NCBI GenBank assembly: GCA_964383935.1
Contig: CAYLIE010000001.1
Span: 11,073 to 75,072, forward strand
Reading direction: 5' to 3'
From: an uncultured Anaerolineales bacterium
GTDB lineage: Bacteria > Chloroflexota > Anaerolineae > UBA7937
DNA: 64,000 bases
Under the pieces are notes generated by a model that did not search any database, was not told the origin of the DNA, and was given only the letters and a program-made list of their open reading frames with translations. Both the position numbers and the translations under genes were made by a program. Of the stretch, positions 1-63,967 are shown in pieces (the stretch's first letter is position 1; every line of letters starts with the position of its first letter).

Positions 1-1
1 G

Positions 2-130
2 GGCACCATCACTTTGGCTCAGGTGCGGGATCTCTTCTCCACCAGTCGCAAGTACGCCCAAGCCTTCCTAGAAGATTTGGATGCCCAAGGGATCACCAGA
101 AGGGCGGGGGATGAGAGAGTGCTTAGGTAG
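2..130 (+). CDS. selB: selenocysteine-specific elongation factor SelB, C-terminal winged-helix fragment (5' partial, gene runs off window start)
   Basis: Frame-2 translation ...[42 protein letters not shown] matches the conserved SelB C-terminal WH4 motif (RKYA..LE.LD..GiTrR.GD.RVL). Stop TAG at 128-130. Confidence 0.6.
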
Positions 131-139
131 GAGGAGACC

Positions 140-1309
140 TTGCCTCTTGAGTTAGGCCTCATAAGTGAACAGTTGGAGGAGATGGCTCGTGCTTTAAGAG
201 GGATGAAGAGCCAGGAGATAGAGCGGGCTCGCCTCCTATTGAGGGAGACCGACCCTGACAAGTTGAGGGCCAAGATAGAGAAAGCCAAGACCTCTTGGCT
301 CCTGGCTTGGCCTGAAAACACCCTTTCTGGAGCCTATCCTGCCCCGGAGCCTCCTTTGAACTTCAGCGTGGCGGCCACCGATGGCTCTTATATCAGACCA
401 GACCGACACATTCCGGCTCGCTTCGTGGTCATCAATATAGGTTCGGCGCTACTCACCTATGGCGATGACCCTATGGCGCGGCTAGATTCGAAGAGCCATT
501 TCTATTTCCGGGAGGAGGAACTCCGCATCCCCCACCCCTTCAAAGACCTTCATCTGGAGGGAGAGTTTCTGGGGGCCAGACGGACGGTCTTAGAGTTAGA
601 GGCTTTGGTAGAGGTCGCCGCCCAAGGTACAAAACCGGTGGTGGGCCTTCAAGACGGTAGCCTCATCCTTTGGGGGCTGCCTACCACCGATGACCCGGAT
701 GATATCTCGGTGCGAGACCATTTCTTGCATCCTTTTTTGGGAGCCCTCCAAAAGTTGCGGGCCCAGGGCATACCGGTAGCCAGTTACCTCAGTCAGCCTC
801 AGAGCAAAGATGTGGTTAATTCATTGCGAGTTGAGATCTGCGATAACGACCCGGTCAACTGCGATAAGTGCTCTTATGTGGCCCAGCGCCAGCGGCCTAT
901 CTGCAGCCACTTGGCGGGGGTCTTAGACCGTCAGATTTTCGCCACCTTGAAGCCAGGGGAGCGTTCGGATATCTATAAGGGCTCATCGAAGATCCTTCGA
1001 GTGGGATACGGCGGGCAGGGGATATATTTCTTCTACTTGAACGTGGGGCAGGAGATCGTCCGATTGGAGATTCCCCAATGGGTGGCCGGCGATGAGGAGA
1101 AGTTGAACCTCCTCCAGGCCTTGGTTTACGACCAATCTCGGCGGGGTCGAGGGTACCCTTCTGCCTTGCAGGAGGCTCATGAGCAGGCGGTCATCACCGG
1201 GCCCGAGAGACGGGTGGTGGAGAGCCTGGTGGAGCAGGCATTGGCTAGGGAGGGGGTGGAGTTTTTCAGGTCGGGGAAAGCCACCAGCAAAAGGGAGCGA
1301 GGGGTATGA
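140..1309 (+). CDS. nurA: NurA-domain 5'-3' nuclease
   Basis: TTG start 8 nt after a GGAGGAG RBS. NurA-like N-terminal motif 'SVAATDGSYIRPDRHIPARFVVINIG'. Sits in an operon ending in a HerA-like ATPase. Stop overlaps the next start (ATGA at 1306-1309). Confidence 0.65.
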   Translation: MPLELGLISEQLEEMARALRGMKSQEIERARLLLRETDPDKLRAKIEKAKTSWLLAWPENTLSGAYPAPEPPLNFSVAATDGSYIRPDRHIPARFVVINIGSALLTYGDDPMARLDSKSHFYFREEELRIPHPFKDLHLEGEFLGARRTVLELEALVEVAAQGTKPVVGLQDGSLILWGLPTTDDPDDISVRDHFLHPFLGALQKLRAQGIPVASYLSQPQSKDVVNSLRVEICDNDPVNCDKCSYVAQRQRPICSHLAGVLDRQIFATLKPGERSDIYKGSSKILRVGYGGQGIYFFYLNVGQEIVRLEIPQWVAGDEEKLNLLQALVYDQSRRGRGYPSALQEAHEQAVITGPERRVVESLVEQALAREGVEFFRSGKATSKRERGV

Positions 1310-1896
1310 GGATTGGGGAGATCATCCAGACGAGAAGCACCGGTTTCGTAGCCGAGAGTTACCAGTTGCATCAGCCTCCCGCCTTGGGTAGCCTGGTCAA
1401 AGTTAAGGTGGATGATCACCGAGAGATCTACGCCGTGGTTTCCTATGGGGAGACGGGGGGCATCGAACCCGGCCGACGAGCGGTGCGCTGGAGCACCGAT
1501 GAGGTCTTCGATGAGGCGATCTATAAGGAGCACCCAGAACTGAGGCGCACCCTGCGCACCGAGTTCACCGCTCTCCCCGTAGGGAGTGTGGAGGGAGAAG
1601 AGGCGAGGCAGGGGTTGCCTTCTGAGCCTCCACCTATGCATTACTCGGTCTATTTATGCCAGTCGGAGGAGGTACATCGCTTCACCGAGGAACTCTACTA
1701 CCTCCGTCTCCTTCTGACTGGTGAGGGACCGGTTCCCAAGGAGCAACTCTTGGTAACCCACCTGCGAGAGGTCTATCGGGCTCGGGGCAAAGATGAGGAG
1801 TGGCTCTCGAGGGCGGCGCGGGAGATCGCCAGATTGTTAAAGCGGGACTATGACCGGTTGATGACCGTGCTTTTGGGGATAGAGTCAGCTAGTTGA
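1306..1896 (+). CDS. hypothetical protein, NurA/HerA-operon associated; possible small beta-barrel (HAS-barrel-like) protein
   Basis: 196-aa ORF translationally coupled to nurA (ATGA overlap). N-terminus MRIGEIIQTRSTGFVAESYQ...LGSLVKVKVDDHREIYAVVSYGETG resembles a HAS-barrel beta-rich pattern. Codon usage matches the neighbours. No firm homology recognised. Confidence 0.45.
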   Translation: MRIGEIIQTRSTGFVAESYQLHQPPALGSLVKVKVDDHREIYAVVSYGETGGIEPGRRAVRWSTDEVFDEAIYKEHPELRRTLRTEFTALPVGSVEGEEARQGLPSEPPPMHYSVYLCQSEEVHRFTEELYYLRLLLTGEGPVPKEQLLVTHLREVYRARGKDEEWLSRAAREIARLLKRDYDRLMTVLLGIESAS

Positions 1897-1932
1897 GCTA
1901 AGCCAGAGCAATAGATGTGAGAGGCTATTGAA

Positions 1933-2697
1933 GTGGCAAAAGGACGGTATAGATTAGAATTCCCTTTGGAGTCATTCCTTACCTCGGGCAAAGAAATTGG
2001 CTCGCAGGACAAGGGTATCAGACTAGTTCCAAATCCAGACAGGAATAACTTGCTTGACAAAGGAATCGTTGAAATTGAAGCTCGTTCGATGGAGCAAGCG
2101 TGGGATGAAGCGCATGACACTCTATCAGGCTATCTCAGCATTTTGTCTTATGAATATGACTGCCCCATCCGGATCTCAGACCCACCTAGCTGCCACGAAA
2201 TTTCGCCTGCCGCTAGTGGAAGAACCACTCGCAGCGTTTCGCAGACCGCAAGGGCGTATATTGCTGGCTCAGCGCGCATAGACCGTTTACCCGATGTTGC
2301 TAAATATCAATCGATGCAAGTTGCCTTAGCTTGCTATAGGGAGGCCAGAAGTTCTACCAACGAATTTCATCAGTACCTGAACTACTACAAGGTGATAGAG
2401 AATCTTTTGGACGCGAAGGGCACGCCGGGGAAGAAAGGAAAGAAGACCGTGGATGTCCTTCACGAGAAATTGAACGAGGTTGGCGTCACTATTGATAGTA
2501 AGCGTATCAGCCAAGACCAGGCAAAAGAGATATACAAGGATTCCCGGTGCGCTTTAGCCCATGCTGGTAAGCAACCGACTTTGACTAGAGACAGGATAAG
2601 GGATGTGAGAAGAGTTCGCAAAGGGGTGCCAGTAATAAAGGATATTGCGCGGCAGTGTTTAGAGTGGAAAAAGCGATCACTAGAGGCAAGTCCGTAG
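1933..2697 (+). CDS. hypothetical protein with C-terminal Rx4H (HEPN-like) motif; low-GC insert
   Basis: GTG start after a GAGAGG RBS (an ATG at 2089 is an alternative start). GC is about 45% against about 60% for the flanks. C-terminal 'KDSRCALAHAGKQ' matches R-x4-6-H. Confidence 0.5.
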   Translation: MAKGRYRLEFPLESFLTSGKEIGSQDKGIRLVPNPDRNNLLDKGIVEIEARSMEQAWDEAHDTLSGYLSILSYEYDCPIRISDPPSCHEISPAASGRTTRSVSQTARAYIAGSARIDRLPDVAKYQSMQVALACYREARSSTNEFHQYLNYYKVIENLLDAKGTPGKKGKKTVDVLHEKLNEVGVTIDSKRISQDQAKEIYKDSRCALAHAGKQPTLTRDRIRDVRRVRKGVPVIKDIARQCLEWKKRSLEASP

Positions 2698-2706
2698 GAG
2701 AAACTG

Positions 2707-4329
2707 ATGGCACGTAAGCGCTTAGGTGTAGTAACCGATGGAGCCTTCGAGGCGGGGCTCACGGTGCGGCTGGATCCGGGTTGTTCCACCGAGGATTTGC
2801 GGATCGGCAGTTTCGTGGTTGTGGAGGGACGTAGCCATAGGTTCTTCTGCACCATCACCGATATGCGACTGCAAGCCACAGATCCCGGACTTCTGGCTGA
2901 CCCACCTCGTGATGCCTCTCCTTTCGTCACCAGGGCCTTGGCGGGGGTAAGTAGTTACGCTACGGTACAGGTGAAGCCTCATCTCATGCTGGATATATCG
3001 AAAGGAGTGGGAGAGGAGACCCCGCCGGAGCCGGTGCGCACCATCCCCATGCATTTCGCCGAACTCTACGAGGCCTCGGGACTCGATTTCGCCACCGTCT
3101 TCGGCGAGGAGGGAGGGATGAACTTCGCTATGGGGGCTCCCCTCACCATGGAACTCCCCATCTGCCTCCGGCTGGATCGATTCGTGGAGCGTTCCAACGG
3201 CGTCTTCGGCCAGACGGGGACGGGGAAGAGTTTCTTGGCCCGCCTTCTCCTGGCGGGGATCATCAAATCTAAGGCGGCGGTGAACCTGGTCTTCGACATG
3301 CATAACGAGTACGCTTTCGGAGCCCAAACGGAGGATGGGGGGTGGGTCAAGGGGTTGCGCGACCTCTTCGGCCCCCAGGTGCTTGTCTACTCCCTAGATG
3401 AGGAGTGGGGAGCCCGGCGGAATGTGGATGTGACCTTGAAGGTGGGGCTCAACCAGATGGAGTTGGGGGATGTCTTGCTCCTGGCTGAGGAGTTAGAGTT
3501 GAGCCCCACGGCGGTCACCACCGCCGAGTTGGTCTATGCCCGCTTCGGAAGGGGCTGGATGAGAAGGCTGGTGGCGCTGGAGAGTGGCGATAGCGAGGCG
3601 CTGAAGGAGTTTTGCGACCTCACGGGCGCCCAATCGGAGTCCCTGAAAGCCCTTCAACGTAGGGTGAAGCGGATCGCCGGTCGGGAGTATGTGCGAGACG
3701 AGGTGGCCTTCTCCGCCATCGATGAGATGGTGGCCGCTTTGGATAGGGGGCAACATGTGGTCTTGGTTTTTGGCCGCCACGACACACCTCTCGATTATAT
3801 GTTGGTAGCCAATATCGTGGCTCGAAGGGTGCGCCGGCTATATCAAGAGAAGGTAAACAGGTACGAGGGGACGAGAGACGAGGCGGACAAGCCGCAACCT
3901 CTCCTCATCACCTTAGAGGAGGCCCACAAGTTCTTGAGCCCCCAGGTCTCCAGACAGACCATTTTCGGCACCATCGCCCGGGAATTGAGGAAGTTCTATG
4001 TGACCCTCATGGTGATCGACCAGAGGCCCAGTGGGATAGACCCGGAGGTGATGAGCCAGTTAGGGACTCGAGTGACGGGGAAACTCACTGACCAGCGGGA
4101 TATCGACAGCGTTTTCACCGGGGTAGGAGGGCGGAGTTTCTTGCGTGGGGCCTTAGAGAGTCTAAATACCCGTCAAGAGATCCTCATTCTAGGCCACGCC
4201 GTCCCCATGCCCATCGTTCTCAGGACCCGTCAGTACGACGAGGGGTTCTATAGGGCTATGGGGGCTAGAGGTAGGGAAGGGAAAGAGAGGCAGGCTCTCA
4301 AAGATATCGCCGACCTATACGGGGATTAG
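2707..4329 (+). CDS. herA: HerA-like (DUF87/FtsK-HerA superfamily) hexameric ATPase/helicase
   Basis: N-terminal HAS-barrel-like region (GVVTDGAFEAGLTVRLDP...GSFVVVEG). Walker A 'GIFGQTGTGKSF' and Walker B 'LLITLEEAHKFL'. Good RBS AGGAGAAACTG-ATG. Same operon as nurA. Confidence 0.75.
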   Translation: MARKRLGVVTDGAFEAGLTVRLDPGCSTEDLRIGSFVVVEGRSHRFFCTITDMRLQATDPGLLADPPRDASPFVTRALAGVSSYATVQVKPHLMLDISKGVGEETPPEPVRTIPMHFAELYEASGLDFATVFGEEGGMNFAMGAPLTMELPICLRLDRFVERSNGVFGQTGTGKSFLARLLLAGIIKSKAAVNLVFDMHNEYAFGAQTEDGGWVKGLRDLFGPQVLVYSLDEEWGARRNVDVTLKVGLNQMELGDVLLLAEELELSPTAVTTAELVYARFGRGWMRRLVALESGDSEALKEFCDLTGAQSESLKALQRRVKRIAGREYVRDEVAFSAIDEMVAALDRGQHVVLVFGRHDTPLDYMLVANIVARRVRRLYQEKVNRYEGTRDEADKPQPLLITLEEAHKFLSPQVSRQTIFGTIARELRKFYVTLMVIDQRPSGIDPEVMSQLGTRVTGKLTDQRDIDSVFTGVGGRSFLRGALESLNTRQEILILGHAVPMPIVLRTRQYDEGFYRAMGARGREGKERQALKDIADLYGD

Positions 4330-4587: not shown

Positions 4588-4959
4588 ATGAAAGAGCAAC
4601 ACAAGTACACTATCAACTTGGATTCAGAGTTCGGTTTCCTTGAGCTAATTGACGTACCAAGCCTCGTTGCCGCCTGCCAGGAGCAATGGTACAACCAGAC
4701 TCTTTGTCAGGTGAATGACTGTGTAGTTCGCCTCGGCGTCATGCAAGGGGAATTTCATTGGCACAAACATGATGAAGAAGACGAGTTCTTTTTCGTCCTC
4801 CAGGGCAAGTTTCTAATCGATCTAGAAAATGAGACGATAACACTTGAACCCCACCAGGGTTATACTATCCCGAGAGGGGTCGTACATCGTACCAGAGCAC
4901 CGGAACGGACGGCCATCCTTATGGTGGAGGCGAGTTCGGTAAAGCCAACTGGGGACTGA
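4588..4959 (+). CDS. cupin-domain protein
   Basis: Strong RBS AAAAGGAGG 7 nt before ATG. Cupin motifs G-EFHWHKHDEEDEFFFVLQG and PRGVVHRTRAPERTAILMVE. GC is about 45%, below the flanks. Confidence 0.7.
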   Translation: MKEQHKYTINLDSEFGFLELIDVPSLVAACQEQWYNQTLCQVNDCVVRLGVMQGEFHWHKHDEEDEFFFVLQGKFLIDLENETITLEPHQGYTIPRGVVHRTRAPERTAILMVEASSVKPTGD

Positions 4960-54317: not shown

Positions 54318-54970
54318 AGATCACCACCTCCTTACTACTTTTCGACTTTAGCAAAAGCGTGTCCGGCGGTCAAGGGTCAGTCTCAGACGGTTCGTCATTG
54401 TGGGGCCTGAAGGCGGCGGTGCACCGCGCCCACCCCCACGGGCCGGAGCCGAAGTCCCCGCTGGAAACCCGCTCCCGAGACAGAGGGCTACTTAGTAGAT
54501 CAATCTTCTCTTATAGGAGGATGAGCGGCGGCTTTGGCAAGCCTAGCAGAGGTCGAAAACAGCTTGCCGACAGCCGACTCGGAGCGGGCGGACTTTCGGC
54601 TCTGATGAGAGGAGGCCTCTCGCAGGGGGCGAGAAGGCGTCCATATCCCCCACCGCCGTCAACTTTTCGATGTCAAAGAGAGCGGATTTCGAAGGATATA
54701 TCCCAAGAGGGATTTATCCCCCCCGGTTTTCGGGGCTCTCCGGGCTTCTAGGAGGCCGACCGTGCTCAGGAAAGCACCCCGAGCTTGCTTAGGGTTCACT
54801 TGCCCCTGCGCTTCGCTCACGGGGTGCTGAAAACAACCCTCCGGCCTTCGGCGGGCAACTCCCCCTTCCCAGGCGGAGATGACGGGCTGTTCTCTCCTTC
54901 GCGCGCTTCTACCATTTGACTCCAATTCTAACTATGCTACAATACATGCAAAGCTATGGAGGGAAGGCGA

Positions 54971-56770
54971 ATGCACATCACCCACTTCAGGGCTAAGCAC
55001 TTTCGCTGCCTCTATGATACGGACTGGATAGCAATCCACGATTTGACCGTTCTGATCGGTGAGAACGATGGAGGCAAGACGGCAACGATTGATGCCCTTG
55101 AGATTCTGCTCACCATTAAGCCCCCCGACACAGAAGATTTTTCTTTCGTGCCAGGGAGCCAGGAGCAGCACGAACAGGAAATGGTTTTGGAGGCAAAATT
55201 CACCCTTGAGTCGAACGACGTTTCTGCGTTGCAGGAGTTCTGCAGGTACAGTAGCGAGCAGCTAATCATTCGTCGGGATTTCTCCCCGGATTCTGCTGGG
55301 CCATGGACATATAGAACGATGGTTCACGCTGATGAAAGGCTGTCTGCAGATCTGGCCGCCTATACCGTAGCTACACTCCGTGAGATAGCGGAGGAACACG
55401 GGATAGACGTCCCCTTGAGTCCAAAGGCCGACATCGTCGATGCTATCGAGACATGGCTCGCCACTCAGCCGTTGTTTGAGGGATACCGAGAGTTGCCGCG
55501 TGCCGCTCGCGACCTGCTTCCCCAGGTTCAAGTGTTCAGGTCAGCACAGGCACTTGACCCGCAGAGAGAGGTAGACGCTGTTCTCCGAACTGTCTTCGTT
55601 GCCGAGATAGATGGTGAAACATATCGGGGTAAACTGGGTGACATATCCGCTCAAATTGAAGCTAGCCTCAACGAGCGTGTGTCCAGGTTAACACCCGTCG
55701 TTCAAAAATATCGTCCTGAGATCACGGAAGTACGCGTGGATCCTCGTTTCGACTATTCGCGCGGGCTAGCCACGTCGCGCCTCCAACTCATCGGACAGGA
55801 TGGCCACCCCATAAGCCTTGACAAACGCGGAGAAGGCATCAAGCGCCAAGTGACACTGGCTGTCTACGAGTGGAATTCGGAGCTTCTAGCCGCTCGTCCG
55901 GAGGAAGGTGCCCGCCCTCTCCTCCTGGCTTTCGACGAACCCGATAGTCATCTCGACTATTACTCTCAGCGCAAGATATTTGAGATTATACGGAGTCTCG
56001 TCAAACCGGGGATTCAGATAGTCGTCTGCACCCACTCGCTTAATCTCATAAACCGCGTCCCCCTAACCAACATAAATCATTACTGCTTGGACGATCACTA
56101 TTGCACGCGGGTGACCGCTTTGCAGAGCGATGATCCCGCCACGCTTGAGTATTTCGTCGACGACATAGGCAAGAATATGGGCTTGGAAAACAGCCTCATG
56201 TTTCACGAGCGTTGTTTTCTCGTTGTGGAGGGCCCAAGTGAAATGAACGCTTTACCCCCGCTCTTTCGCGTTTGGCACGAGGACGGGCTCAGTCTAACAT
56301 CTGCTGGTATCCGGTTGCTGAACGGTCAGAACAACGTTGGAGCGAGGAATTTCGCCAAGTTCCTTAACGACAATAATCGCAATGTCGTCTTCATGCTCGA
56401 TTCGGATTCTCGAACAGATCCCACAGGCCGCGTCTTCTCTGAGGAAAGCCTTCGTCGCGCAGGTTTTGATATCGATCGCCAGGTCTTCTTCGTCGGAGAT
56501 AGGGAGTTCGAGGATGCGTTCAGTGACACGCTTTGGGCCAGAGTCGGCAATACTAGATGGCCTCCAGAAGACGGGCGACCTTGGCAACCGGATGATTTTT
56601 CAGGCCGCAGGTCCCAAGACAAGAAATTCTCCGATGGCCTTTGCGCCGCATTCCGAGCGTCCAAGCCCAAAATAGCTTATGAACTTGCGAAGCGTGTAGC
56701 CGACCCCACTGAGATCCCCGCTCAAATCCAACGGTGTTTTAAGCACGCACTGGCGTTGGCGAATTCCTAG
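54971..56770 (+). CDS. OLD-family ATP-dependent endonuclease (N-terminal AAA_15/21 ATPase + C-terminal TOPRIM)
   Basis: RBS GGAGGGAAGG. MHITHFRAKHFRC...IHDLTVLIGENDGGKTATIDALEIL (Walker A), LLLAFDEPDSHLD (Walker B), TOPRIM CFLVVEGPSEMNALPPLF...VVFMLDSD. Confidence 0.75.
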   Translation: MHITHFRAKHFRCLYDTDWIAIHDLTVLIGENDGGKTATIDALEILLTIKPPDTEDFSFVPGSQEQHEQEMVLEAKFTLESNDVSALQEFCRYSSEQLIIRRDFSPDSAGPWTYRTMVHADERLSADLAAYTVATLREIAEEHGIDVPLSPKADIVDAIETWLATQPLFEGYRELPRAARDLLPQVQVFRSAQALDPQREVDAVLRTVFVAEIDGETYRGKLGDISAQIEASLNERVSRLTPVVQKYRPEITEVRVDPRFDYSRGLATSRLQLIGQDGHPISLDKRGEGIKRQVTLAVYEWNSELLAARPEEGARPLLLAFDEPDSHLDYYSQRKIFEIIRSLVKPGIQIVVCTHSLNLINRVPLTNINHYCLDDHYCTRVTALQSDDPATLEYFVDDIGKNMGLENSLMFHERCFLVVEGPSEMNALPPLFRVWHEDGLSLTSAGIRLLNGQNNVGARNFAKFLNDNNRNVVFMLDSDSRTDPTGRVFSEESLRRAGFDIDRQVFFVGDREFEDAFSDTLWARVGNTRWPPEDGRPWQPDDFSGRRSQDKKFSDGLCAAFRASKPKIAYELAKRVADPTEIPAQIQRCFKHALALANS

Positions 56771-56778
56771 GAGGGGCC

Positions 56779-57039
56779 ATGAACAGAAACGAAATCGTCG
56801 ACACCATAAGACGTGCCGGAAGAGAAAAAACAATTCTCTGGATACGAGCATACGAAGCCGATGGCTCAATCGAACCCAGAGAGGTTGAGCCCTATAGCTT
56901 TCGTCCATCAGGCACCACGGAGTGTTTCTTCTTTTACTGCCTGCTCCACAAGGGAACTCGTAACTTCCTGGTTGACAAGATCATTGAAGTGCGACTCACC
57001 GACAAGCGCTTTGAACTGCGCTGGCCCATAGAACTATAG
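56779..57039 (+). CDS. stand-alone WYL-domain protein coupled to the OLD nuclease gene
   Basis: ATG 8 nt after the OLD stop, with RBS overlapping the stop. EVEPYSFRPSGTTECFFFYCLLHKGTRNFLVDKIIEV matches the WYL ligand-sensing fold. Confidence 0.6.
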   Translation: MNRNEIVDTIRRAGREKTILWIRAYEADGSIEPREVEPYSFRPSGTTECFFFYCLLHKGTRNFLVDKIIEVRLTDKRFELRWPIEL

Positions 57040-57261
57040 ACGTTCATTCAGCTCGAATAGCCAGTCGGCCAAGAGACACGTTTCTTCGTCAAATGACACT
57101 TAGACGAACAAAAAGCCCGTGGGCCCGCGATCGCTTTCCGATCCTTTCAAACCTTCTCATCTTGCCAGAGCCAGTAAAACCAGGCCGGGTGAAGTGGACG
57201 GCTTCGCCTTTTAAGAATTGACCCTCTCGCTCTTTTCAAAGACTTTGCAGGAAATAAAAAC

Positions 57262-57286
57262 CGCACCCCGAAGGGTGCGTTCTGTT
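57262..57286. terminator. bidirectional rho-independent terminator between the OLD-WYL operon and the NYN gene
   Basis: AAATAAAAAC-CGCACCC-cgaa-GGGTGCG-TTCTGTT. The minus strand reads hairpin then GTTTTTATTT. Confidence 0.7.
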
Positions 57287-57345
57287 AAACCAATATATTT
57301 ATATCACAGCATGACATTTTTGTCAAGTTTTTCAAGTAGGATCAC

Positions 57346-57888
57346 TTATCTTCGTTGAACCGTTTGTTGTATATCCTCAAGGAATCGGTATTCTTGGCAG
57401 GCAAGCTTTAGCTCCCAAGAGAGGGTTTTGCGAGAAGAGAAAACCACCAGCGTTTTCCCCAAATCCCTCAGGCGCTTTCCAAGATCGGCAAAGTCACTGT
57501 CCCCCGAGAACAAAATGACGCAATCCAAATCCGCCCTCTCTAGAAGAATATCAGCGGTCATCTCCACATCGAAATTGGCCTTGTATACAAAGGTGTATCC
57601 ATACAACTTCCAATAGGGATGGTCCTTGTCAATGGCGATCTTTTTGAGAGGTTTAGTGATGGTGGTAAAGCCGATCTTATCCAAATACCGCAAATATTTG
57701 GGCATTTTGCGATCGCCCTTCTTTAGGCCGGTGTAGTAGCGAAACTCCAGCACGTCAAACTCTTGTTGAACAAGGGCTTTGACCTTCTCCCAGTCGATAC
57801 TCCAGCCCAGCTTGCGCTGGGTGTAGAACATGTTGGCGCCGTCAATATATACTTTTGCTCTGGGTTTTTCCCGAGAAAGATGGGCCAT
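57346..57888 (-). CDS. NYN-domain (LabA-like, PIN-fold) putative RNase
   Basis: KVYIDGANMFY...DCVILFSGDSDFADL NYN motifs. Leaderless arrangement, TGCTATAAT -10 ending 6 nt before ATG. Confidence 0.7.
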   Translation of the reverse strand: MAHLSREKPRAKVYIDGANMFYTQRKLGWSIDWEKVKALVQQEFDVLEFRYYTGLKKGDRKMPKYLRYLDKIGFTTITKPLKKIAIDKDHPYWKLYGYTFVYKANFDVEMTADILLERADLDCVILFSGDSDFADLGKRLRDLGKTLVVFSSRKTLSWELKLACQEYRFLEDIQQTVQRR

Positions 57889-58057
57889 GGGTCTATTATA
57901 GCACCCAGCCCCTTACTTCAACAAGTTGACTAGCGAGGAGCACCCCGGGGGTTCTAAGGCAGAAGTAGAAGCCCAAGCCAAAATTTCAAAATCAACCCAA
58001 CCGATCTGCCACTTGCCACCACGACGGCGCGCCTCTATAGAGACTTAACACCACGAT

Positions 58058-58082
58058 GGCATGCTTGTATATACAGCATGCC
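58058..58082. repeat. 25-bp near-perfect palindrome between small peptide C2 and the NYN promoter
   Basis: GGCATGCT-TGTATATACA-GCATGCC (one-base bulge). Confidence 0.45.
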
Positions 58083-58126
58083 ACAGACGGTCAAGCGCGC
58101 TCACGAAAGCCACCGGCCCCGCCCAT

Positions 58127-58216
58127 CTACTTTCGTTTCCTGCCGATAGACAGTGCCAGCCAGATCAGTATTGTGGAAAGCAGCATGCCCAGCAACAGTC
58201 CAGGGATAGTTGGAAT
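58127..58216 (-). CDS. small hydrophobic peptide with basic tail (paralogue C2)
   Basis: (I)PTIPGLLLGMLLSTILIWLALSIGRKRK*. GGAAGGAAG RBS 9 nt upstream of ATT. First 10 codons identical to C1 at protein level with synonymous nucleotide changes. Confidence 0.45.
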   Translation of the reverse strand: MPTIPGLLLGMLLSTILIWLALSIGRKRK

Positions 58217-58383
58217 GAATCATCACTTCCTTCCTCTCTCATCGTAGCATAGAGAAAACGGGCCGATCAATATGAAGAGGTGTTCGCAACTAGGGCAGGA
58301 AAGTCAGGGATGGGACCACCGGAGGAGACCACCTCGGCCCACTGCGAATTGATCATTGACAGGGGTATCCTCAATTTGCTACT

Positions 58384-59166
58384 GTGAGAATGGAGGGGAT
58401 GCCCGGAGCTATCCATTGGGCTTCTGGAGGGCGCACCAGCCATGCAATGTGCCACAACCAGCCGCCCGGGGAAGCCGAATCTGTTCTCATGAAGGAAAAG
58501 CAACCCGTTCACCACACATCTGACGAACACGCTGTGTCATCGGAGCAGAGGAAAGAATATCCCCTCGGCAGAAGCATCGTTAGACGGCTCAAGAAAACAC
58601 TCAACGAAGAGTGGGACTCTTGGCTGGTGGAGGAAGACGAGGATACCTTCAAGACCCTCTACCTGACAGAGCGACGGGTGTGCATCCCCGAACATCTGCT
58701 TAGCGGCGAGATCATGGAGGACATCATGAGTCTTTTCTACTACCCCCTCTCCACCGTCAGGGAGGAGCTCAAGGAGCGCACAGAGGCAAAGGAGTTCATC
58801 TCTATCTTTGTCCAACCCTCATACACGGACACCTCTTTTGCCGTGATGGTGGCCGGAGAAAAAGCTCTGTTGACCGTCTCTGACAAGGCGTGGAACTTCT
58901 ACTGGGATAGTGAAGAGGAGATGGTGAAGGAGCTGGAGAGTTGGTATCAGATTGCTGAAGCCAGGCTCAAGGGCGGACCCAGGCTCTTCGGCGGTGATGC
59001 CTGGGCACTTGAGACCCTGCTACGGCAGGTGAGGGAAGAGGACATTCCCAGGCTGCAAGAGGAAAGCCGCTGGCGGGCTGACGAACTCCGCAGAGCCCTT
59101 GATCTTCTCTCCCGCTTGCTTGAAGAGCCACGGGATAGAGAAGAATCGCTCCAGGACCTCAGCTAG
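58384..59166 (+). CDS. hypothetical protein (acidic, helical)
   Basis: 260-aa ORF in the island. Start uncertain (internal ATGs at 58443 and 58492). No family recognised. Confidence 0.4.
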   Translation: MRMEGMPGAIHWASGGRTSHAMCHNQPPGEAESVLMKEKQPVHHTSDEHAVSSEQRKEYPLGRSIVRRLKKTLNEEWDSWLVEEDEDTFKTLYLTERRVCIPEHLLSGEIMEDIMSLFYYPLSTVREELKERTEAKEFISIFVQPSYTDTSFAVMVAGEKALLTVSDKAWNFYWDSEEEMVKELESWYQIAEARLKGGPRLFGGDAWALETLLRQVREEDIPRLQEESRWRADELRRALDLLSRLLEEPRDREESLQDLS

Positions 59167-59261
59167 GGGAGAGCAGGGAACAGAGGAGACCCCAGGCTCC
59201 CAGGAACTTGTTCCTTTGCAGGGCGAGAAAGGCCGCGAGCTACTTATACTATTATATATAT

Positions 59262-59822
59262 ATGAAGGAACGTGAACCCGATTTCGAAAACGAGAAGATA
59301 CGGGCCTGGCTGATAGGGCCTTCCTTAGAGGGTCCCGCGGAAAAGGAGCAAGATCTTGAAGGTCTCGAGAAAGACCCAACTGTCATAACCATTGATGAGG
59401 AGACCGAAGAGATATTCGAGAGTCGCGCCTATCACTTCAGGCCTGGCCCGGAGACCTTCTCTTTTCTCCTTGGCTCGCTAGCCAAGACGATGGGTGAGAA
59501 TCTTGCTGAGATCCCTCCGGAGGAGCTTGTGGATCATGTGATGGACATGATCGAAGGCACTGGTATCAAGTTCCTGGCCAAGCGGCGCAAGGAGGATGGT
59601 CGAATCACCTTTATTTTGGTGGGGATCAGTTGCCATTCACGGTCGCTCCTCGATCGCCAGGAATTGGTCAAGGAGGCCGGTTATCGCAAGGCGGTCCAGG
59701 AGTTTGAAGAGCTCCCCCTTTCAAGGGCGATCCTTTCGCCACCGGCAGTGGTCACCCTTGAGGAGTGGCGCCGCTATGCTGAGGAAGGTCCCCTCTCAAG
59801 AAGCGAACGCGAGGGAGAATAG
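59262..59822 (+). CDS. hypothetical protein
   Basis: MKEREPDFENEKIRAWLIG.... 186 aa from ATG 59262; track ORF starts at 59208. No family recognised. Confidence 0.4.
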   Translation: MKEREPDFENEKIRAWLIGPSLEGPAEKEQDLEGLEKDPTVITIDEETEEIFESRAYHFRPGPETFSFLLGSLAKTMGENLAEIPPEELVDHVMDMIEGTGIKFLAKRRKEDGRITFILVGISCHSRSLLDRQELVKEAGYRKAVQEFEELPLSRAILSPPAVVTLEEWRRYAEEGPLSRSEREGE

Positions 59823-59874
59823 AAAGAGCCAGACTTGAGCTGGGAAGGAAGAAGCCTCCAGGCCACGTTGATGC

Positions 59875-59982
59875 CTACCTGGGCTTTCTCTTCCGTCCCT
59901 TCTCAACCATGACCGGAAGAGCCAGTAACCATATGAAGACCGTGATTCCTACAAGAAGCCATTCTAGAGGCGTCAAGGCCAT
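59875..59982 (-). CDS. small hydrophobic peptide with basic tail (paralogue C3, canonical ATG)
   Basis: AAGGAGGTG RBS, 9 nt, then ATG. MALTPLEWLLVGITVFIWLLALPVMVEKGRKRKPR*. Same RBS spacing and architecture as C1 and C2. Confidence 0.55.
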   Translation of the reverse strand: MALTPLEWLLVGITVFIWLLALPVMVEKGRKRKPR

Positions 59983-60501
59983 ATGTTCAATCACCTCCTT
60001 CGGAGAAAGAGACAACTCATCAAGTATCCAGATATAAACAGGGTCAGTCCTATGAGTGTCACTCGAAAGGAAAACCCTCGCTCGGAAAGAATCTGTCCGA
60101 AGACGAGGGCTCCAATCGCTATATTTGCCAGATCGACTAACTTGTCCGCAGAAAGCCTTCGATGATCCTCGTTGAAGCGGATAACCATGCACTCTGATGT
60201 TAGCACATTGAGCGAGATGCTGTCAATACCACAATACGGAGTATCCTAGGCGAAGCATAGACAGCCGACCTGCACATAGCGATCTGGTCTACATTTCCCC
60301 CCTTTACCGCCTTTTCCTTATTTTGTTTTCCCTCGCGCCCGCGCGAAAGAGGGGATTGAGAGAGCTGGGGGAGGGTAGACGATATGCCTATGTGCAATCC
60401 GATTCCACTGACATCCGCTAATGAGAAATGCTCAAGGTGTCCCTGAGTAATAGTCTGATCAGGATGGAGCTTATGCGCCTTTGTATGACTCTTGGTAATA
60501 G

Positions 60502-60530
60502 TTGACTGTTACGGTGCCATAGGTTATACT
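60502..60530 (+). promoter_or_regulatory. sigma70-type promoter for the PAPS-reductase-like/PLD/NTPase operon
   Basis: TTGACT (60502-07), 17 nt, TATACT (60525-30), 65 nt before the ATG. Confidence 0.5.
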
Positions 60531-60595
60531 GGTTGCAAACCTAAATCCTTCTCTGCAGGTTCGCAATCTCGCACGCTACAGAAACGGGCAGGTGA

Positions 60596-61321
60596 ATGCA
60601 GGTACCAGAGTGGCTGGGGCATCTGCAAGAGGCTGAAACCGCGTACGTGCTGTTTTCGGGCGGCAAAGACAGTTCGGCGGCCCTGGTGTACACCAAGGAG
60701 CTGAGTGACGAGTTTTGCGAATCTCCTCGATTAGTAGCGGTCCATGTGGATACGACGGCGGGACTTCCTGCTGTTGAAGAGTTCTCAAAGCAGTTCTGTA
60801 GTCATGTTGGCGTGCCTCTTACGGTTTTGAGGCCTGAAGAGGACTATTTTAGTCTAGTGAAGCGTTGGGGCGTGCCGCGCCCTAGGGCGAGGTGGTGTTG
60901 CTTCCATCTGAAAATAGAGCCGATCAAGTTGTTCCTTGATGGGCAGAAGAATTACGTGGTCTTGGACGGGATGCGAAGGCAGGAATCACGGAAGCGCTCC
61001 CAGTATCCGCCCACCTACGATCATCCCCATTTTGGGCTGGTAATTCACCCAATTATAGATTGGACAAAGGACAGAGTTGAAGATTTCATTGCCTCAAGGG
61101 ACTTGCCTATCAATCCAGCGTACGAAATGGGATTCAGTTCCTGGGAGTGCTGGTGTGGTGTGTTCAAGCGAAAGTGTGAATTTGAGAAACTGCGGGATGT
61201 GGATAGGGACTTCTTCATGAAACTGGTGGAACTGGAGGATTCCCTTACAAGTGGGTATGCTTACGCCTATTTTGATGGCAAACCCTTCTACCTAAAGGGT
61301 CTACTACAGGAGAAAGATTGA
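60596..61321 (+). CDS. PP-loop ATP pyrophosphatase of the PAPS-reductase/DndC-SspD-like family with Cys cluster
   Basis: PP-loop 'VLFSGGKDSSAAL'. Cys-rich segments RARWCCFH and WECWCGVFKRKCEF suggest an Fe-S site. 241 aa. Confidence 0.65.
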   Translation: MQVPEWLGHLQEAETAYVLFSGGKDSSAALVYTKELSDEFCESPRLVAVHVDTTAGLPAVEEFSKQFCSHVGVPLTVLRPEEDYFSLVKRWGVPRPRARWCCFHLKIEPIKLFLDGQKNYVVLDGMRRQESRKRSQYPPTYDHPHFGLVIHPIIDWTKDRVEDFIASRDLPINPAYEMGFSSWECWCGVFKRKCEFEKLRDVDRDFFMKLVELEDSLTSGYAYAYFDGKPFYLKGLLQEKD

Positions 61322-61322
61322 T

Positions 61323-61859
61323 TTGCAAGTGGAAGTTGTGGCAAACCAGCATCATCGTGGAGTGATAGAACGCTTATTGGAAGGAAGGCCGTTCCGCGTG
61401 CGGCTGTACGCACTACACGTTCATGATGTCCAACTGATCAGCTCTTCGCTAGGATTGCGCTTAATCAGGCTATTGGGGTCAGATTGTACAGTAACGGTAG
61501 CTTTTGGAGACAGGCTTTGGGACACGGAGACGGGCAGCCCCAGGAACGAGTTATGTAGGCAAGTCCTCGACTTCTTGAAGGAGATCGAGGATTATGGGGC
61601 AAACGTGTGGCACGTACCAGATCCCTTGCTACACGCAAAAGTCCTATATGTTGAGGAAGAAATGCCGGGTGCCGGGCGAACGAGTCGTGCGTTGGTGAGT
61701 AGCGCGAACTTCACGGAGACGGGTATTGGCGGTAGCAACTTTGAACTGGGGATCGGTTTCGAAGACTTAGAGGCGTGCCCAATCCTGGCACAGAGCATAA
61801 AGAAGTTCACCGATGGAGTACTCGGTGCAGCCAGACCTATACCTTGGGAAGGAGTTTAG
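61323..61859 (+). CDS. phospholipase D (HKD)-like nuclease-family protein
   Basis: Single HKD-like motif HAKVLYVEEE...GRTSRALVSSANFTETG. Start 2 nt after the previous stop. 178 aa. Confidence 0.55.
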   Translation: MQVEVVANQHHRGVIERLLEGRPFRVRLYALHVHDVQLISSSLGLRLIRLLGSDCTVTVAFGDRLWDTETGSPRNELCRQVLDFLKEIEDYGANVWHVPDPLLHAKVLYVEEEMPGAGRTSRALVSSANFTETGIGGSNFELGIGFEDLEACPILAQSIKKFTDGVLGAARPIPWEGV

Positions 61860-62978
61860 ATGATGTGGTTCGAGAGGTACAACTTCAAAGAAGATCCCTA
61901 CGTGGTGCGCGATCCATTCGAGACTTCACTAGAGTTCATCCAATGGGATAGGGAGGACCTCGTACACAAGAAGAATCTTGACTTTTTCATAAGGGATGTC
62001 GTAGGTGGCTATCGCGTTGGATTGAAGGTGTATGGCGCCAGTGGCAGTGGGAAAACCTGGTTGCTGAGATATCTCCAGAAAGAATTGGTGCGGCAGCTTG
62101 GTGACGAGGTAGTTGTTCTCTATGGAAAGATTCCGCGGTTTGATCCCACGTTCTGGGTCTTCTATGACATGGTAGTGAAGGGTTGGCTCGACCATCGAAG
62201 TAGAATCCTAGAGACCATCGCAAGGACAGCCGGTGACGTGGAATCCGCATGGCAGGAGCACATAGGAGACGCTGACTTGGCAAGCTGTCTATGGAGGCTA
62301 AAGTACAAGGCTGACGAAAAGGTAACAATCAGCCTTTGTGAGCATTGGTTAAGGGGCACAAAGATTCCGGTTCGTGACCTGAGCCAAGTCGGTGCAACGG
62401 CTTCACTGGATCGCGACTACTCGAGGTATTCCGTCCTTGTCCAATTATTGGACCTAGCCTTGCAGGCTTTCGGCACATGCGTCCTCATGGTTGATGAGCT
62501 TGAGAATGCTCCTGGGTCACTCGCTCGGGCGCTCGGCGATGCCCTCAGAGACCTCTTGGATAGCTTCTCCGAGCGATTCGCATTGGCATGCAGCTACACA
62601 GCTCAAGCGGCGGACGAGTTGCTCGATAGGGGATACGGAGAGTTCTTGTTCAGGCGCTTGGAGTGGCACGTAAAGCTTGATCCAATCACGCCTGACAACG
62701 CTCCTGGCGTTTTTAGGGTCCATCATGGCACGTACCGAAAGCCTGGACATGAGGGCGATCAATTGGCTCCCTTCACGGAGCAAGCACTACGCAGGTTGTT
62801 GAGGGAAATGGAGCCAGAAAAGTGGTATCCGGGGTTCATATTCCCTAATTGTGGAGTCTTAGGGCGTCTAGCGAGTGAAGCAAGTGCTGATACGATAGAC
62901 GAGACTTTTGTGGAGACGACGGCGTTTCAGAAGCGGGAAGTCTTTCCATACCTGGGGCCAGAGTCCAGACTTATATAG
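61860..62978 (+). CDS. P-loop NTPase (AAA/ORC-like) of unknown family
   Basis: ATG immediately after the PLD stop with an AAGGAG RBS. Walker A 'VYGASGSGKTWLLRYL' and Walker B 'CVLMVDELEN'. 372 aa. Confidence 0.55.
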   Translation: MMWFERYNFKEDPYVVRDPFETSLEFIQWDREDLVHKKNLDFFIRDVVGGYRVGLKVYGASGSGKTWLLRYLQKELVRQLGDEVVVLYGKIPRFDPTFWVFYDMVVKGWLDHRSRILETIARTAGDVESAWQEHIGDADLASCLWRLKYKADEKVTISLCEHWLRGTKIPVRDLSQVGATASLDRDYSRYSVLVQLLDLALQAFGTCVLMVDELENAPGSLARALGDALRDLLDSFSERFALACSYTAQAADELLDRGYGEFLFRRLEWHVKLDPITPDNAPGVFRVHHGTYRKPGHEGDQLAPFTEQALRRLLREMEPEKWYPGFIFPNCGVLGRLASEASADTIDETFVETTAFQKREVFPYLGPESRLI

Positions 62979-63967
62979 GAGAGCTTGCCGTCCCGACCAG
63001 CTATGGCTGACTGCACTATGCCTTCATTCGCCAATCGCCTAATTAGCCGCCGCAAAGTCTTCTCTTCGAGTACGCAGTACCGTTCTATCAGTAGGCTCAT
63101 ACAGACATATACACTGATGGAACGTACGTCAGACAAGCGCAGCTGTGGTCTCTCAAAGAGGGCGTAGGCCTTACGGAACAGCTCGAGAAAACGCGCGCGG
63201 CTAGGCTTGTGCTCATATCGAAAGTCAGGGAGACATCCAGGCGCGTCACCTACGTAGGCAGATGCTGCCCAATAGATCTTCTCCTGCAGTTCAGCGCCCT
63301 CCTTGGAGAAGAGACCGAGCAGCTTCTGTGCCATGCTTGTTAACTGAAGCCGTTGAGGATTCACGAGGCCCAGTTGCTGCAACCAAAATCGGAAACAATC
63401 AAAGTTGTTCCGCACTTTCCTTGGTGGGGAGTCTGGCTGCCTAGAGAAGTGCAAGGACAAATACGCCTTGTCCTCCCAGGTGCTACAGGTGCTATTGGAC
63501 AAGACCCTTTGGCCGTAAGACGTGATGACTCGTTCTATGGGTCCGCCTGCATTCTGAGAGATGGCTCCTAGAGCAGAACTGAACTGCAACGGGAGGTACA
63601 GGGCAAGAGCGCGAAAATAGAATACCTTTTCTGCAAGTTCAAGGGTTTTGTTTGACTTTGCAGGCACCAGAGCGCAAAGCGCTTTTCCCTCGCTGGAAAG
63701 CACATAGCCGCCATTCTCGCGCGTCACTAGTCCGAGTGATTCCATGGCGCGCAAATGCCTCTTGATCACCTTGACATTCGTCAGACCCAGCTCTTTCTGA
63801 ATCAAGGGCACAAGCATATCAGTTTCCATAAGTCCTTCGGGGCGCATGATGTGGCAAATTCCCGTGAAGCGGTGCAATTGCCCCTCTGACGTGGTCAGGT
63901 CTGCCAGGAATCCAGTGCGCGAGACTTCCATGCGATTGGTATTCGCTTCCTTATCTACTATGTCCAT
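62927..63967 (-). CDS. hypothetical protein with winged-helix (MarR/HxlR-like) DNA-binding region
   Basis: LIQKELGLTNVKVIKRHLRAMESLGLVTRENGGYVLSSEGKAL. 346 aa. Convergent with the NTPase gene, ends overlapping by about 50 nt. Confidence 0.4.
   Translation of the reverse strand: MDIVDKEANTNRMEVSRTGFLADLTTSEGQLHRFTGICHIMRPEGLMETDMLVPLIQKELGLTNVKVIKRHLRAMESLGLVTRENGGYVLSSEGKALCALVPAKSNKTLELAEKVFYFRALALYLPLQFSSALGAISQNAGGPIERVITSYGQRVLSNSTCSTWEDKAYLSLHFSRQPDSPPRKVRNNFDCFRFWLQQLGLVNPQRLQLTSMAQKLLGLFSKEGAELQEKIYWAASAYVGDAPGCLPDFRYEHKPSRARFLELFRKAYALFERPQLRLSDVRSISVYVCMSLLIERYCVLEEKTLRRLIRRLANEGIVQSAIAGRDGKLSYISLDSGPRYGKTSRF

Follow-up and report, generated by a model that had tools for sequence, protein, structure and literature searches.

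Bacterial NurA-HerA systems are little understood beyond Deinococcus and Thermus. In Deinococcus radiodurans the HAS-barrel of the HerA ATPase is the surface on which the NurA nuclease docks (PMC9960219). HerA-family ATPases also occur in defence systems such as SIR2-HerA (Nezha) and HerA-DUF4297, where HerA hexamers scaffold effectors via their N-terminal face (PMC11291478). A third group of relevance are the RNases of the HEPN superfamily, whose Rx4-6H motif begins where one helix ends and continues into the loop that precedes the final helix, with a conserved acidic residue upstream, and marks catalytically active, metal-independent enzymes (PMC3710099). One of these, the anticodon nuclease PrrC, is embedded in hsdMSR and is triggered by a phage anti-restriction protein (PMC1484252; 10.1101/2024.01.29.577857). 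Here we describe a locus that shares features with each of these systems. It lies in a stretch of 64,000 nucleotides (nt) of an uncultured Anaerolineales bacterium of the Chloroflexota (assembly GCA_964383935.1, contig CAYLIE010000001.1, positions 11,073 to 75,072), referred to below as the window, and consists of nurA, a gene for a protein of 196 amino acids (aa) named p196, a gene for a 254-aa protein named p254, and herA.

We estimate at roughly 60% the probability that this locus is a vertically inherited nurA-p196-herA operon into which p254 was horizontally acquired, p254 being a protein of the MauJ family with a HEPN-type domain that would act as a stand-alone toxin or defence effector. 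The list of open reading frames (ORFs) contained all four genes where the original prediction had placed them, with Pfam domains NurA and DUF87 identifying the outer two. The features of the locus are as follows:

1..130, plus strand: 3' end of selB, about 10 nt 5' of nurA, from gene calls on the identical metagenomic contig L003
140..1309, plus strand: nurA, 389 aa, TTG start, NurA-family nuclease by Pfam, with 389-aa orthologues in loci L001 and L005
1306..1896, plus strand: p196, 196 aa, HAS-barrel and helical region, overlapping the nurA stop codon by 4 nt (ATGA)
1897..1932, no strand: spacer of 36 nt 5' of p254, in place of the ancestral p196-herA intergenic region of about 80 nt, by comparison with the empty site of L005
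1933..2697, plus strand: p254, 254 aa, GTG start, low-GC insert, with an N-terminal alpha/beta domain and a C-terminal MauJ (PF17419) domain
2545..2562, plus strand: codons of R205-C-A-L-A-H210, candidate HEPN Rx4H active-site motif, from conservation and model position
2696..2700, plus strand: AGGAG, likely herA ribosome-binding site by sequence reading, overlapping the p254 stop codon (2695-2697) and 6 nt 5' of the herA ATG
2707..4329, plus strand: herA, 540 aa, HerA/FtsK-type hexameric ATPase with its own HAS-barrel, by Pfam DUF87 and HAS-barrel

The overlap of nurA and p196 bears out the translational coupling that had been predicted for the two, and only 9 nt separate the end of p254 from the herA start codon.

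p254 stood out from its surroundings in composition. Its GC content was 48.2% and its GC content at third codon positions (GC3) 50.2%, as compared to means of 56.7% and 66.3% for the ORFs of the window and to 56.6-59.1% and 67-73% for its direct neighbours. This GC3 value was the lowest among the 46 long ORFs in the window (standard deviation 5.7), and only 1.3% of 765-nt windows were as GC-poor. The low GC content had been noticed by eye before; the dip itself is significant, while the values estimated at that time (about 45% within flanks of about 60%) overstated it. The orthologues of p254 showed 45-47% GC within flanks of 59-64%, and all four copies lie at 45-48%. Just three close relatives were found among 5.8 billion proteins, with 67-69% identity, and all four known copies, each from a different lineage, sit between p196 and herA, including those of L081 and L082, in which p196 is only 74% identical to that of the window. 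No remnants of p254 were detected in the empty or differently filled sites of the closest relatives.

The evolutionary rates of p254 also differed from those of its neighbours. Between the window and the metagenome-assembled genome (MAG) W31_47 (L001/L004), nurA, p196 and herA are 89%, 87% and 96% identical, with ratios of nonsynonymous to synonymous substitution rates (dN/dS) of 0.15, 0.19 and 0.05 and a synonymous rate (dS) of about 0.38, whereas p254 is 70% identical with a dN/dS of 0.30 and a dS of 0.63. Similarly, L081 and L082 share 95% identity in herA and only 72% in p254, and in total p254 is 64-72% identical among genomes whose herA genes are 95-96% identical. These comparisons show p254 to be under purifying selection and yet to diverge fast or to exchange alleles. 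Foreign composition and restriction to few lineages support the interpretation of p254 as an acquired gene, which is in line with the original prediction.

The structure predicted for p254 divides into an alpha/beta domain at the N-terminus (about aa 1-95), a linker of low confidence, and, at the C-terminus (about aa 121-252), a MauJ domain for which the model predicts a HEPN fold. Profile searches assigned residues 131-243 to Pfam family MauJ (PF17419) with 72.6 bits (cutoff 28), covering model positions 1-115 of 116. In the AlphaFold model (predicted local distance difference test, pLDDT, 84.5; predicted template modelling score, pTM, 0.84; five models at 82-84.5) a sheet-plus-helix domain and a disordered linker precede a helical domain with the four-helix up-down topology typical of HEPN proteins. 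The RCALAH motif noted earlier was found at residues 205-210. A helix of residues 194-204 ends at R205, the loop after it contains H210, and residues 222-252 form a long last helix, which agrees with the described position of the HEPN motif (PMC3710099). Searched exhaustively, 1.84 billion representatives yielded 253 remote relatives with 25-39% identity, which share approximately residues 110-245 with p254. Among 153 aligned MauJ sequences, which are only 20-35% identical, R205 was conserved in 152 and H210 in all, with the consensus R-C-A-[IVL]-A-H. R136 and E137 were each present in 145 of the 153, and Y135, L149, K153, P219 and D224 were also strongly conserved. From model and conservation we conclude that p254 carries a domain of the HEPN type whose active site appears intact, and we infer RNase activity. 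This reading of MauJ appears to be undescribed in the literature searched: searches on MauJ and PF17419 returned nothing relevant, and the family is absent from the 2013 HEPN census (PMC3710099).

The MauJ family further showed variation in architecture. Among P0127-P0153 and P0274-P0382, many members are 415-450 aa long or longer and have extra uncharacterised regions, one carries an N-terminal SEC-C motif, and conserved sequence was also observed N-terminal to the 116-residue Pfam model.

The remaining three genes of the locus appeared to form a unit of their own. Window and related loci, which belong to MAGs of Anaerolineae/Anaerolineales and other Chloroflexota, were compared in a scan with one genome per species. 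p196 was present in 72 species, and its more than 338 homologues (48-95% identity), as far as they are named, all belong to Chloroflexota. It lies 0-192 nt 3' of nurA in 66 of 66 measurable loci, often with the same overlap of start and stop codon, and in 23 species herA follows within 90 nt, giving a compact nurA-p196-herA arrangement. While nurA and p196 form an invariant pair, herA is often displaced. Since no other gene accompanies nurA as constantly as p196 throughout the Chloroflexota, the comparisons argue that it is no insert and that nurA-p196-herA is an ancestral three-gene operon. Of the two genes that had been regarded as extra, only the one for p254, confined to four lineages, would therefore be an insertion.

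The AlphaFold model of p196 (pLDDT 81.8; pTM 0.79) showed an N-terminal beta-barrel (residues 1-117) followed by five C-terminal helices, so that its earlier description as beta-rich applies to the N-terminal part only. By sequence methods only a marginal HAS-barrel match was obtained; searches of PDB by sequence or profile and of PHROGs gave no match. The hhalign comparison of a p196 profile with the HerA of the window was also null, and the relationship to HerA is therefore structural only. In its model p196 resembles a stand-alone counterpart of the N-terminal HAS-barrel region of HerA that lacks the ATPase. By analogy to the HAS-barrel of D. radiodurans HerA, on which NurA docks, and because nurA-p196 is invariant while herA is often displaced, p196 might serve as an adaptor or regulatory subunit that binds NurA. 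Such a protein, mimicking the NurA-docking domain of HerA throughout a phylum, would be a testable clue to the regulation or loading of the nuclease.

Several lines of evidence indicated that this operon occupies a vertically inherited chromosomal site. It is flanked upstream by selB and downstream, on the opposite strand, by genes for an amino-acid permease and an S8 peptidase. SelB is encoded directly 5' of nurA-p196 in 20 species, in a selB-nurA-p196-herA order that extends to p196 proteins just 42% identical, and the downstream permease is present in nine. Because of this synteny the locus appears to be no mobile island. No tRNA or Rfam element was found across the window, scans for repeats, promoters and terminators around the p254 insert gave nothing above chance, and no att-like repeats flank p254. 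About 10 nt separate the end of selB (L003:6306-8207; window 1-139) from the nurA start codon, and as the two genes adjoin in 20 Chloroflexota species, selB and nurA-p196-herA may share a transcript.

The proteins encoded by nurA and herA showed the traits of a NurA-HerA module, namely a NurA-domain gene and a HerA with HAS-barrel and DUF87 P-loop in a single tight operon on the same strand. NurA matched its Pfam family with E=5.7e-28 (98.5 bits, cutoff 21), and HerA matched the DUF87/HerA central domain with E=5.7e-28 (98.9 bits). The HAS-barrel of HerA scored slightly below the Pfam cutoff (E=2e-5; 25.0 bits, cutoff 25.2), and its Walker A motif reads GQTGTGKS. HerA reached none of the NCBIfam HerA equivalog cutoffs and would therefore represent a divergent clade. 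It is remote from all solved HerA structures, with D. radiodurans HerA unmatched at E<=0.001, and NurA had no PDB sequence match at E<=0.01 and no match in PHROGs. The NurA-HerA clade of the window is very remote from every solved example and has no characterised close homologue; a 2:6 NurA:HerA complex that resects DNA ends, as in such modules, would be putative here.

A census of 53 informative species showed where the operon is open to additional genes. The nurA|p196 junction was never interrupted. At the p196|herA junction, 23 species had herA at most 90 nt from p196, 14 had 0.55-5.4 kb of other DNA between the two genes, and in 16 no herA was found within 4.5-6 kb. A divergent herA hidden downstream of p196 in the latter loci was considered and rejected, as a hidden Markov model search of the downstream ORFs was empty. 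The varied cargo at one junction and the intact state of the other point to p196|herA as a specific, recurrent insertion point. Close relatives with herA 91-95% identical to that of the window either lack p254 or carry unrelated cargo. The site is empty in L005 (p196 95% identical) and L007 (74%), it holds a gene for an unrelated 249-aa protein, whose hydrophobic N-terminal segment resembles a membrane anchor, in L056 (93%), and about 440 bp of other sequence in L006 (Anaerolineales UBA3082; 93%).

The cargo at this site was mixed and in part looked defence-like or selfish. We found a genuine HEPN and MNT gene pair in L055, a 1350-aa DrmMI/type IIG methylase together with a PDC-S11 protein in L070, the same methylase and PDC-S11 families after p196 in L026, a PDC-S11 protein accompanied by a short methylase-family fragment in L017, and, in L073, a GIY-YIG nuclease. 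Other loci carried ordinary genes, such as AAC(3) (L061), AzlCD (L061-L063), cupin and SDR genes, and ABC-transporter genes. This hot spot in an uncultured group could be mined for new defence genes. On both sides of the L006 insertion (L006:1900-2520) the last 50 nt or so of p196 are present as direct repeats (GAAGCGGGACTAYGACCG..TGATGACCGTGCTYTTGGGGATAGAGCC). The left copy completes the p196 ORF, and the right one is followed by the ancestral intergenic region and then by herA. The arrangement resembles a duplication of the target-site or att type and hints at site-specific insertion into the 3' end of p196.

A number of results weigh against p254 as an acquired HEPN-type toxin. Pfam scans of 48 MauJ members, like those of ten remote relatives of p254, returned MauJ only and no established HEPN family. 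Searches of PDB sequences with the MauJ profile or with p254 gave no match, and hhalign of the MauJ profile against one canonical HEPN (PF05168) protein was null. Foldseek found no significant match of the p254 model in PDB, the best HEPN structure being 2hsb (E=0.16, probability 0.77), and the conserved arginine is mostly followed by cysteine, where N, D or H would be usual. No gene for an antitoxin or immunity protein was evident next to p254, which leaves the restraint of a free RNase unexplained; in particular, Pfam detected no NTP_transf_2 or Polbeta (MNT) domain in the four operon genes or in the cupin gene downstream of herA. The tblastn search of p254 against plasmid and phage collections gave no match, nor did the search of PHROGs. 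The tight packing of the genes and the overlap of the herA ribosome-binding site with the p254 stop codon would also fit functional integration, and given the AAC(3), AzlCD, cupin, SDR and ABC-transporter genes found at the same site, the hot spot alone is no sign of defence.

Some of these points would be explained if p254 were no nuclease and MauJ were instead a HEPN-like helical module for binding of nucleotides, protein or RNA, a regulatory module, or an inconsequential selfish gene. Some HEPN families are indeed non-catalytic binders (PMC3710099), and both the missing profile link to catalytic HEPN families and the cysteine after the arginine are compatible with such a role. We nevertheless consider it unlikely, because the near-perfect conservation of R205 and H210 in such divergent sequences points to a site that is catalytic or essential for another reason, while inactive HEPN families usually lose the motif (PMC3710099) and a dN/dS of 0.30 indicates purifying selection instead of decay.

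In a more far-reaching interpretation, NurA-p196-HerA would be a defence-type or defence-linked DNA-degrading machine, p196 a new regulatory HAS-barrel subunit of it, the p196|herA junction a dedicated slot for embedding back-up immune genes, p254 a PrrC-like guarded toxin released upon phage interference, and MauJ an unrecognised family of HEPN RNases. As a whole this appears quite unlikely. A guard arrangement by itself, in which, as for PrrC in EcoprrI, a latent HEPN RNase fires as a backup when a phage inhibits or overloads NurA-p196-HerA, is likewise quite unlikely in our view. Such an arrangement would explain why no separate antitoxin adjoins p254, and the fast evolution and persistently low GC content of p254 and the repeated presence of defence-type genes at this site fit it as well. 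The link between p254 and a host complex would, however, be drawn by analogy to PrrC, the site also holds metabolic and transport genes, and MauJ relatives elsewhere are solitary and in unrelated contexts, from which it follows that the family needs no such host complex in general.

The contexts of these relatives also bear on the relation of p254 to HerA. In the five contigs with remote MauJ genes that we inspected, none of these genes was located near HerA or NurA: the neighbours were VapBC for the first, ParE/Phd, Fic and a resolvase for the second, and unrelated genes for two more, while the fifth is part of an integrative and conjugative element (DUF736, relaxase, SLT). p254 adjoins herA in only four lineages, and relatives of each are also found where the other is missing. 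HerA itself showed no special divergence in p254-bearing genomes and scored only 56-76 bits against the NCBIfam models of anti-phage HerA (cutoffs 800-850). The absence of HerA and NurA near remote MauJ genes, the native and strongly constrained HerA, which stays below the cutoffs for anti-phage HerA, and the heterogeneous cargo of the site argue for p254 as hitch-hiking accessory cargo that is probably on the operon transcript and not as a subunit. The original prediction had instead seen in NurA, p196, the HEPN-like protein and HerA one composite defence complex, with HerA responsible for assembly or activation of the HEPN effector in parallel to SIR2-HerA and DUF4297-HerA. The tight packing on one strand, the location of all four p254 orthologues in exactly this place and the scaffolding ability of HerA hexamers would suit such a complex. 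We found it very improbable in view of the close relatives that keep nearly the same herA with an empty site or other cargo, and it was the least supported part of the earlier reading. No SIR2 or DUF4297 domain was detected in the operon by Pfam and PADLOC. An identity of p254 with DzbB of Dazbog was also considered; this sole PADLOC match of p254 covered only 34 residues (E=0.002), and the link was rejected because the partial match was not shared by ten other MauJ members, including the close orthologue P0003.

The least probable explanation is that a genus-level clade inherited the four-gene arrangement from its ancestor and then lost or replaced p254 repeatedly, for although p254 occupies the same position even in L081 and L082, has the same 3' junction in L001 (the sole locus compared for the junction) and is deeply diverged (dS 0.63 as compared to 0.38 in the flanks), its low GC content is unameliorated in all four copies, it is absent from the interleaved L005, L006, L056 and L007, and the direct adjacency of p196 and herA in 23 species outside the clade makes it an addition at class level.

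We therefore return to an acquired p254 within an ancestral operon. In this scenario nurA, p196 and herA would form the ancestral module of Chloroflexota, inherited vertically, with p196 as a putative NurA-binding adaptor or regulatory subunit. The small clade to which the window belongs would have received p254 by horizontal transfer at the recurrent p196|herA insertion point, and co-transcription with the operon would probably result merely from this landing site. The C-terminal MauJ domain with its intact Rx4H motif might function as a metal-independent endoribonuclease of the HEPN type, controlled or targeted by the N-terminal alpha/beta domain, and p254 might thus act as a stand-alone toxin or as a defence effector of the abortive-infection type. 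The original prediction depended on a HEPN fold in p254 and on a four-gene order that is not the ancestral repair operon of the lineage; the predicted model contains such a fold, and the survey of relatives showed p254 as the variable element.

Two further observations were made in the window. Between herA and the permease lies a 123-aa cupin gene with 49% GC (4588-4959) which is absent from the syntenic locus of MAG W31_47 (L001/L004) and appears to be a second small accessory insertion beside the operon. At some distance, a low-GC stretch (54956-63967) encodes defence-like genes and may be a defence island:

54956-56770: OLD/GajA-like ATPase-TOPRIM protein
57346-57888, minus strand: NYN-domain protein
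60596-61321: PAPS-reductase-like protein
61323-61859: PLD-like protein, weak match
61860-62978: AAA_16 ATPase

When compared to known systems, the operon resembles NurA-HerA of D. radiodurans in layout (PMC9960219), as both combine a NurA nuclease with a HAS-barrel HerA on one strand. The sequences are very distant from each other, and the constant third gene p196 has not been described for Deinococcus or archaea and appears to be undescribed altogether. With the HerA-effector defence systems (PMC11291478) the locus shares a HerA-family ATPase gene beside a putative nucleic-acid-degrading effector. In those systems the pair of effector and HerA is the conserved unit, whereas here the pair occurs in four lineages only, HerA is the lineage's own partner of NurA, and the MauJ effector family occurs elsewhere without HerA.

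The name of the MauJ family comes from a gene in methylamine-utilisation clusters. p254 matches the full-length Pfam model above its cutoff, and all 253 remote relatives share this region. While the name implies methylamine metabolism, no mau genes were found in the operon of the window or in the eight p254- or MauJ-bearing neighbourhoods for which Pfam tables were available. The metabolic name might therefore be misleading, and a HEPN-type RNase family that travels as mobile cargo would extend the repertoire of toxins and defence genes and correct existing annotations. Accessory or mobile contexts are also typical of HEPN RNase toxins (HEPN-MNT proteins such as SO_3166, 7ae2 and 8xdj; AbiV; Csm6; PMC3710099). 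p254 differs from these by its lack of profile matches to established HEPN families and of an MNT or antitoxin neighbour, by its additional N-terminal alpha/beta domain, and by the cysteine following the arginine of the motif.

The nesting of a HEPN-type RNase gene among genes for a DNA-processing ATPase and nuclease complex is shared with PrrC in the EcoprrI type Ic locus and with other embedded defence genes (PMC1484252; 10.1101/2024.01.29.577857). For PrrC, which possesses a regulatory ABC-ATPase domain, both physical and functional coupling to the host complex have been demonstrated, whereas for p254 such coupling would be putative, and its host locus is no established defence system. The p196|herA insertion site thereby raises the question whether DNA-repair operons can host guarded toxins in the way that restriction-modification loci host PrrC.

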